From Escherichia coli (GTDB lineage Bacteria; Pseudomonadota; Gammaproteobacteria; Enterobacterales; Enterobacteriaceae), in assembly GCF_003334305.1 (NCBI RefSeq), contig NZ_QOWS01000019.1: a stretch of 64,000 nt of DNA. One strand, given 5' to 3'. Position 1 is the first letter of the stretch. The number at the start of each line of letters is the position of its first letter. Below, one piece after another: positions 12,001 to 15,000 of the stretch. The position numbers were made by a program.

Positions 12001-15000
12001 GTTTAAGTGGGCCCCGGTAATCTTCTTCGCAGTCGCCAAACTTGACGAAGATTATCGGGGTTTTTGCTTTTCTGGCTCCTGTAAATCCACATCAGAACCA
12101 GTTCCCTGCCACCTTATGGCGTGGCCAGCCACAAAATTCCTTAAACGATCAGTAATCTAGCATGCTACGACACAAAGTAAAGTCTTTACTTTAGTATATC
12201 CAGTCTCTGCAGTTCATCTTTGATAATTTTCTCAATGAACTGAGCCTGTGTTATCCCCTCTCTCTCGCAGTACTCAACCATGAGATCTTTCAGAGGATTT
12301 TTGACAAAAACTTTTATCTCTTTGTGTGTAAGACGTTTTCTTGCAACAGCGGCCATTTGTTTCTCAGAGTCAGTCATAGGCTTACCTCTGCGCACAAACC
12401 GCTTTTGACTCAATGAGGAAGTCACTGCATTTTCTGTCTGCGACACCTCGCCTCCTCAATACTCAAACAGGGATCGTTTCGCAGAGGATACTACAGTTTT
12501 TTGAAATCAGCGACTTGAGAATTGTGACGAAGATCTGTGTTGTACTGCTCATATACCCAGGCAGCCCCGGCCCGAACCATAAACTGATTAATATTCATTC
12601 CGTCTGGTGCATAAACCTGCCCGAGAATACGACCATAACGATCTCGCTGAAAATATGTGACGGTAACCGTTTTTCCTGCGACCAGTGATCTCATCATGTC
12701 TGTTGACCACCGGCCATAATCCTGTTTCTTTTCCGGTGCATCAATATTTACCAGCCTGATCCGCACCGCCTTCCGTGAGTCCATTACCTCGATGGTATCA
12801 CCGTCCAGTACACGAACAACCCGTCCATGAATATATGCAGACAATACCGGCCATGAAAAGATAAATAATACCAGTGGAATATATTTCCTCATGTTATTCT
12901 CCATATCAAATAAATGGCACCTGTATTTCAGCCCCCCTGAATATCGCAGCACACATTGAATAAAACCTTATTTTGTGAAATTAATCACAAAATATAAAAT
13001 CGCGACTTAATACGGAAAAAACTCTGTGCTACTCAGAACAGTCCGGTCATACTGCCCGACCGGAGATTAAAAAAGTAAATCTCATGCATTATTCAGCCTT
13101 CTGACTCCTGGAGTAATGAAGGCTGCTTTTTTCGTTACACCCTTCCCCGGCAGCGCCGGTGGCAGTGTGCAGCCCTTTTTCGGGCAAACTGCTGCCAGTC
13201 TGTCCGGGGCGCAACACCGGCAGCCCGTCGCCATGCTTCTGCCGCTTCCATCCAGCGTCCACTGACCTCCAGAATAACGGCCCGGCTTCCGGCACGCTGC
13301 CAGCGCCAGACCTGACCGTTCCGTGAACTGTTTCTGAATCCATTCATTTTTCTGCCCCTCCCTTTTAGTTGTCAGTATTATTGTGGTAAATAATTCAGTG
13401 GACCGATTTCCTTTCGGGCATGGAAGTTATTTCCTTTTAAGCCTTATTGTTTCAGCCTCCTGAAGTTCTTCGGGGAGGCTTTTTTTATTTCTCATTAAGT
13501 ACGGCCTGAAGTTCTGCCTTTATCCGGTTCTGACGGCGAATTTTCGCCAGACGCTCTGCCGCATACGCTTCCTCTTCCTGAGAAATATGCTCCGTTACAT
13601 ACCCTTCCGTGTCATACCGGCAGGCACCGGCTTTCATGGCACACAGATAGCTTTCTGAACGGGTGATGGCCTTCAGCGCCCGGCGCAGTTTTTTATGCGA
13701 GAGCGGGATATTCCGCTGCGCCACGTCTTCCAGTAACACGTCCCGGATACCGCAGGCCAGAAGCCGGGGCGTGTCACCGTCAAATAATCCCGGCCACCAG
13801 GGCTTCAGGGTGTTCACAGCCTCATCCAGCGTGGGCAGGTTCAGATAAATGGACAGCGCTTGTCTGGCCTGCGCTTTTTTTGCCGCCAGCTCTGCTTCCC
13901 GGGCTGCTTTCTCGGCCAGCTTCTGCTTTTTCACCTTCCATTTTGGTGGCGTGGTGACATTGATGATGGTTTTCCGGCTGCGGACAGGCGTCCCCCCTTC
14001 TGTTTTCCGCTTCAGTGTCAGTACCGGTCGCTTCTGCTCTGTCATGCTGTGTTCTGCCTCTGACGAATCATCCTCTTGCGGCCAAAGATACCACACCCGT
14101 TACAGCGCCAGAACGCCCAGCACAGCCAGATGACAGGCATAGAACGTCGGGAAAAAATCTCCGGGCCAGAAACGGGGTAATGATTTCCCTGCACAGGACA
14201 CCAGACCAACGGTCAGCACCGTCATCACAAGGCCGGCCACCGCCGCGGCATCACTGGTGGCAAGGTTAAGCGCCGGAATAACAGCCAGCAGGCATGCAAC
14301 CAGCGCCAGACGTTCCGTTCTGTCTTCCGCCCGGTACAGCCGGTGGCTGACTGCCAGCATCAGCAGCCCGGCAATGCCGTAACTGGTGCCGGACAAAGGT
14401 CCCCACAGTGCCATCAGGAGAATGGCCGCTGCTGTACGCCACCCACTGCGCGTTTCACACCACGTCAGCACCTGTGCCGCCACTGCAAAGGCAAACAGGA
14501 TATTCCCCTCATACCACGGAAAGCCTGCCAGATAATACGCGAACTGGGCAATAATTCCCCATCCCCACAGCCGGTTAATGGCCGACTGCCTGATATGCGC
14601 ATGGCGGGACAGATTCAGCCCCCACACCAGAGCAAACAACGGAAAGGCTCCACGCCCGGCCAGAAACATCCACGTCTGGTCCAGATGCAGAATGCGGTTT
14701 GCGTGGTCCAGTACCATCAGCACCAGTGCCACCGTTTTGATGATATCCCGCTGTCCGGGTGACCAGACCAGCAACGACTGCAACCAGGTATCGGTCCGGG
14801 CAGCCAGTGAATCGTTACGTGTCGTGTTCGTGTTATCCGTTGTCATCAGTGTTTGTCTTCCTGTATCAGTCTCCGCCCAGGGTTTTCTCTTTCTGCAGGT
14901 CACGAACCATATCCTGCTCCATCTGCTGAAGTCGTTCCTGCAGCAGATTTTCCCGGGCAACCTCCCGGACCGCTTCCCGCTCCCGTTGTGATTCACGCAG

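Follow-up and report, generated by a model that had tools for sequence, protein, structure and literature searches.

The window analyzed here is a stretch of 64,000 nucleotides from Escherichia coli (assembly GCF_003334305.1, contig NZ_QOWS01000019.1). It contains an F-type tra region on the minus strand, with finO located at the distal end after traI and traX. The genes and RNA features of the fertility inhibition system are listed in Table 1. The finO reading frame starts at an in-frame ATG at 14045, continues without interruption to the stop codon, included at 13485, and specifies a protein with the C-terminal end AVLNEK. The initial annotation of this DNA had claimed a full-length FinO frame of 186 amino acids, and both its coordinates and its length were found to be exact. 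A GTG start at 14096, which gives a mechanical ORF of 203 amino acids, was rejected since the family model and the public annotation both match the ATG-started form of 186 amino acids.

Table 1. Positions in the window of finO, finP, traJ and associated features.
Feature	Coordinates	Strand	Description and basis
finO CDS	13485..14045	-	561 nt, 186 codons plus stop, uninterrupted; ORF and translation, NCBIfam, Pfam, PDB
traX	14100..14846	-	pECOS88/pMS8345B annotation mapped onto the window; tblastn with F TraX
traI	14866..20136	-	minus-strand order traI, traX, finO
traJ CDS	43716..44405	-	229 aa; TraJ activates the tra operon promoter PY and is what FinOP represses; NCBIfam NF010275, 541.7 bits
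finP promoter-like site	44364..44392	+	TTGACG-17 nt-TACGAT; promoter scan; within the traJ coding region
finP	44399..44477	+	79-nt antisense RNA; Rfam RF00107, 97.3 bits (GA 45), model positions 1-76/76
FinP SLI	44403-44432	+	MFE fold
FinP GACA spacer	44433-44436	+	MFE fold
FinP SLII	44437-44471	+	14-bp stem; SLII and T-run scored terminator-like
FinP tail GAUUUU	44472-44477	+	MFE fold
traJ mRNA leader	44406..44510	-	Rfam RF00243, match 44400..44510, 124.8 bits (GA 50); fold
traJ promoter-like site	44515..44543	-	GTGACA-17 nt-TATATT; promoter scan, 10/12 matches; just upstream of the leader
traM	44592..44975	-	start of the minus-strand tra region running to traX and finO

The ATG-started protein matched the NCBIfam model for FinO (NF010317) over residues 1-186 of 186 with a score of 360.2 bits (E 2e-108), the curated cut-off being 136 bits. 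The Pfam domains FinO_N (PF12602) and ProQ/FinO (PF04352) were found at residues 1-62 (E 7e-39) and 73-177 (E 1.5e-26), respectively, and the crystallised FinO fragment 1DVO differs from the protein of the window by four substitutions in 151 aligned residues (E 8e-95). Based on these NCBIfam, Pfam and PDB match scores the finO ORF is not a chance reading frame. The chromosomal proteins ProQ and RocC have the ProQ/FinO domain in common with FinO (PDB 5NB9 and 7RGS, E about 1e-5), but these global or competence-specific RNA binders are without the FinO_N segment and only distantly related to FinO.

It was also stated initially that finO of plasmid F itself is interrupted by an insertion sequence, and this is the case in the F reference sequence (NC_002483). 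Homology between F finO and the window ends at ...TCAGAAAGC and resumes at AGCTATCTG in NC_002483. The insert in F, TGATCTTACCC...GGGTAGGATCA, is 1258 bp long with an annotated IS3 transposase; it is located after the Ser132 codon and is flanked by a 3-bp AGC duplication. The window is contiguous at this site (TCAGAAAGCTATCTG). When IS3 was excised in silico from F finO, an F FinO of 186 amino acids resulted. The F record has traX directly followed by finO, as in the window, but F finO is split by IS3, and it is through finO::IS3 that F is derepressed (PMC5102898, PMC7690428).

Intact finO is the rule among F-like plasmids and F is the exception. A survey found all classical group A F-like plasmids to be finO+ except F (PMC5102898). 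When PLSDB was searched by tblastn with FinO from the window, the gene was uninterrupted in 4999 of the best 5000 matches; as this set was capped, the count is a lower bound and biased towards intact copies. The finO::IS3 junction of F was spanned by only 12 PLSDB records, most of them laboratory derivatives of K-12 F or F'.

Identity of FinO from the window was 97% with F FinO as rebuilt by excision of IS3 and 96% with R100 FinO; with the R100 and R6-5 proteins, both characterised by experiment, it was 96-97%. The dN/dS of finO was 0.137 compared to F and 0.109 compared to R100, which indicates that FinO is kept under purifying selection. Residues W36, R121, K125, R165 and K176, which structural and cross-linking work of the Glover and Frost laboratories points to as important in RNA binding or strand exchange, are invariant in the alignment of the window, F and R100 proteins. 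Three residues, G18, A167 and N184, are particular to the allele in the window and differ from both F and R100 (E18G, D167A, D184N). If these changes had inactivated FinO, the plasmid would be derepressed like F. We find this explanation barely credible. The changes sit in the N-terminal disordered part and the C-terminal helix, the presumed RNA contacts are unchanged, and dN/dS is about 0.1. Position 167 varies among working alleles too, being D in both R100 and R6-5 but E in pO83_CORR. Furthermore, the allele was found at an identity of at least 99% in about 157 PLSDB records among the matches listed.

FinP was identified opposite the traJ leader, as the initial annotation had it, although far outside the finO interval to which that annotation was attached. 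The RNA is predicted to fold into two stem-loops with an MFE of -37.6 kcal/mol (z -6.46 vs. shuffles), and the centroid structure is in agreement with the MFE structure. The finP promoter-like site ends 7 nt before the start of the RNA, is identical in F, and has its -10 hexamer overlapped by a GATC at 44390-44393. Both the traJ Shine-Dalgarno sequence GAGGAGG (44417..44411) and the AUG (44405..44403) fall within the segment complementary to FinP.

Across the finP promoter, finP itself and the leader of traJ, the window and F agreed at all 161 of 161 nucleotides. Identity was 99.7% over the 1.3-kb traM-traJ segment, and all 229 residues of TraJ were the same (100%). The FinOP systems of R100 and R6-5 likewise have a FinO of 186 amino acids encoded distally in the tra region and a FinP opposite the traJ leader; the traJ/finP allele of the window is however that of F and not that of R100. 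The FinP/traJ pair of F is the classical substrate repressed by FinO in trans (PMC7690428, PMC5102898). With F's own FinP/traJ pair and an intact FinO, the window therefore matches the classical situation in which F is repressed by FinO from another plasmid.

The remainder of the transfer region was compared to F in the same way. In addition to TraJ, the proteins TraY, TraA, TraL, TraK and TraB were 100% identical to those of F. With the exception of artA, trbF and traS, the remaining tra and trb genes were full length with 84-100% identity to F; most tra genes were 97-100% identical, while traG, trbA and trbJ were 91.6%, 90% and 84% identical, respectively. The artA gene of F is absent from the window. 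Of trbF, which is present in F, only the last 23 codons are found, fused behind a trbJ-like ORF, and traS is an allele unrelated to that of F. These differences were placed at 23313..23828, 28023..28418 and 29130..29250 on the minus strand. The F record furthermore has a vapBC pair between traD and traI, whereas the window has none there.

The state of these three genes could be taken to mean that FinOP is intact but irrelevant, with transfer blocked otherwise, for instance by a defective tra gene. However, F is known to transfer without artA or trbF, variation among traS alleles is normal, and the full length of the other tra and trb genes does not suggest a defect. Plasmids nearly identical to that of the window are typed conjugative. 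A pS88-like plasmid has moreover been moved by conjugation (PMC10385740), and this qualitative result was all that a literature search on the transfer frequencies of such plasmids yielded. A block elsewhere in the transfer region is therefore a very remote prospect.

Over finO and its flanks the window is 100% identical to pECOS88 (pS88, NC_011747) and pMS8345B, and dozens of E. coli plasmids share the 1-kb segment around finO at 100% identity. In pECOS88 and pMS8345B the 561-nt gene is annotated as 'fertility inhibition protein FinO' (WP_000139359.1) and is located directly after traX. Positions 1-25000 of the window have 99.9-100% identity to these ColV/ColIa IncF plasmids. Compared to the window, pMS8345B has extra IS elements inside the tra region.

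A related plasmid is pO83_CORR from the AIEC strain NRG857c, a ColV-type IncF virulence plasmid in which finO is intact and TraJ (WP_000283385.1) is identical to that of the window. Its FinO differs from that of the window in 10 of 186 residues, six of seven bases differ in the SLII loop of its FinP (equivalent to 44451-44457 in the window), and its tra region has a deletion between traB and traH. As TraJ is identical in spite of the six altered loop bases, loop alleles of FinP and the traJ leader can change with TraJ unchanged. Deletion of finO on pO83_CORR in NRG857c increased expression from a PY reporter and raised traK and traG mRNA about 100-fold (PMC12491478). This result applies only partly to the plasmid in the window, because FinP loop II and FinO differ, and it lends the FinO allele of the window support rather than proof.

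The immediate surroundings of finO differ between F-like plasmids. The gap between traX and finO in the window (14046..14099) is 54 bp and does not contain the orf286/uilS gene, and the same is true for F. R100 and pO83_CORR, in contrast, have the 861-nt orf286 gene between traX and finO. Its product is now annotated as an alpha/beta hydrolase, and in pO83_CORR as the quorum-quenching AHL lactonase UilS. The absence of orf286 may alter the finO mRNA level. A promoter scan of the DNA just upstream of finO gave no sigma-70-like consensus promoter, and for this reason finO is presumably transcribed by read-through from traX or from a weak promoter. No terminator was found 3' of finO on the minus strand, the only terminator-like hairpin adjoining the finO stop codon being on the plus strand.

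A 70-aa ORF located just downstream of finO (13135..13347, minus strand) scored 30.7 bits against the NCBIfam family ANR (AraC negative regulator), for which the cut-off is 32. R100 and pO83_CORR have genes annotated as regulators of the ANR family at the equivalent position. The Rfam RNA AS-pc02 (RF02876, 195.7 bits) was found at 13056..13238 on the plus strand, antisense to this ANR-like ORF.

As orf286/uilS is missing upstream of finO, repression may be of a weaker class. Van Biesen and Frost reportedly found in 1992 that plasmids without orf286 make less finO mRNA and are more weakly repressed, with repression of about 20-50-fold for orf286-less plasmids such as ColB2 vs. 100-1000-fold for R6-5. 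Taken together with the short distance between traX and finO and the lack of a strong promoter-like site upstream of finO, this would be consistent with an intact finO giving only weak or leaky FinOP repression, where low levels of finO mRNA and FinO result in an intermediate frequency of transfer. We regard such a situation as somewhat unlikely. On these figures even the weaker class represses by more than one order of magnitude, and the qualitative claim of repression would therefore stand.

At the level of sequence, the window has everything that a working FinOP circuit needs. We infer that the circuit is probably functional, as had been proposed initially, since finO is full length and finP is identical to that of F together with its promoter and terminator stem-loop. 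With an uninterrupted finO and a FinP that does not differ from that of F, the plasmid is almost certain to be repressed for transfer. Altogether, the window very probably represents part of a pS88/pECOS88-like ColV-ColIa IncF plasmid with an F-like transfer region, a functional FinOP system and repressed transfer. RNA binding by FinO, stabilisation of FinP and the repressed phenotype are expected from established knowledge of FinOP. The system itself is already known from textbooks and the gene is annotated as FinO in identical public records.

In the mechanism we propose, FinP would be transcribed from a promoter that lies within traJ, in the orientation antisense to the leader of traJ. Its two stem-loops would pair with this leader and so cover the ribosome-binding site and start codon. 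FinO, an RNA chaperone encoded after traX, is predicted to bind FinP, mainly at SLII and the 3' tail, to shield the GACA spacer from RNase E and to accelerate duplex formation. The outcome would be a low level of TraJ and weak activation of PY, so that few cells would carry pili and transfer would occur at a low frequency, which may be roughly 10-1000-fold below that of a finO mutant yet would not be abolished. As established for FinOP, pairing of FinP with the traJ leader blocks the ribosome-binding site, and FinO guards FinP against RNase E and speeds duplex formation. If FinO is missing, TraJ is synthesised, PY is switched on and transfer is constitutive as in F (PMC7690428, PMC8136791, PMC5102898). 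Loss of FinO accordingly derepresses transfer of IncF plasmids (PMC7690428, PMC8136791).

If FinOP is intact, this plasmid with its virulence and colicin genes is predicted to spread at a low, repressed rate, which is typical of wild F-like plasmids. High transfer is predicted only for finO mutants and, for a short time, for new transconjugants. This can serve as background when the spread of ColV virulence plasmids is estimated, for which the repressed state is the expected one.

FinO of pSLT has been found to act as a chaperone for RepX of a co-resident plasmid (PMC8136791), and candidates for further RNA partners of FinO in the window are CopA and AS-pc02. We consider it quite improbable that the G18/A167/N184 allele, in a plasmid without orf286/uilS, represses only marginally, leaving pS88-like plasmids semi-derepressed, and that FinO at the same time serves as a chaperone for other antisense RNAs.

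CopA, the antisense RNA of the IncFII replicon, was found at 11978..12069 on the plus strand (99.4 bits) and adjoins repA (11036..11905, minus strand). Three Rfam antisense RNAs of families first described on pHK01 were also identified on the plus strand, AS-traI at 17211..17287 (104.8 bits), AS-traG at 25849..25934 (62.1 bits) and AS-pc01 at 55868..55969 (105 bits), all with scores above the gathering thresholds. The sok antitoxin RNA at 48480..48652 on the minus strand (92.7 bits) is part of a hok/sok module in the leading region. Cargo genes are located to the left of the replicon at 53..2035 (plus strand), 6613..8493 (minus strand) and 8679..9527 (minus strand). According to the annotation of the identical segment of pMS8345B they comprise the ColV export gene cvaB, which is cut by the start of the window, a 626-aa colicin Ia gene with its immunity gene, and a 3'-5' exonuclease. 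On the leading-region side, 58337..59305 on the plus strand encodes a 323-aa IS110-family transposase of the RNA-guided, bridge-RNA type (NF033542, 198.8 bits); the corresponding region of pMS8345B contains an IS3-family element.
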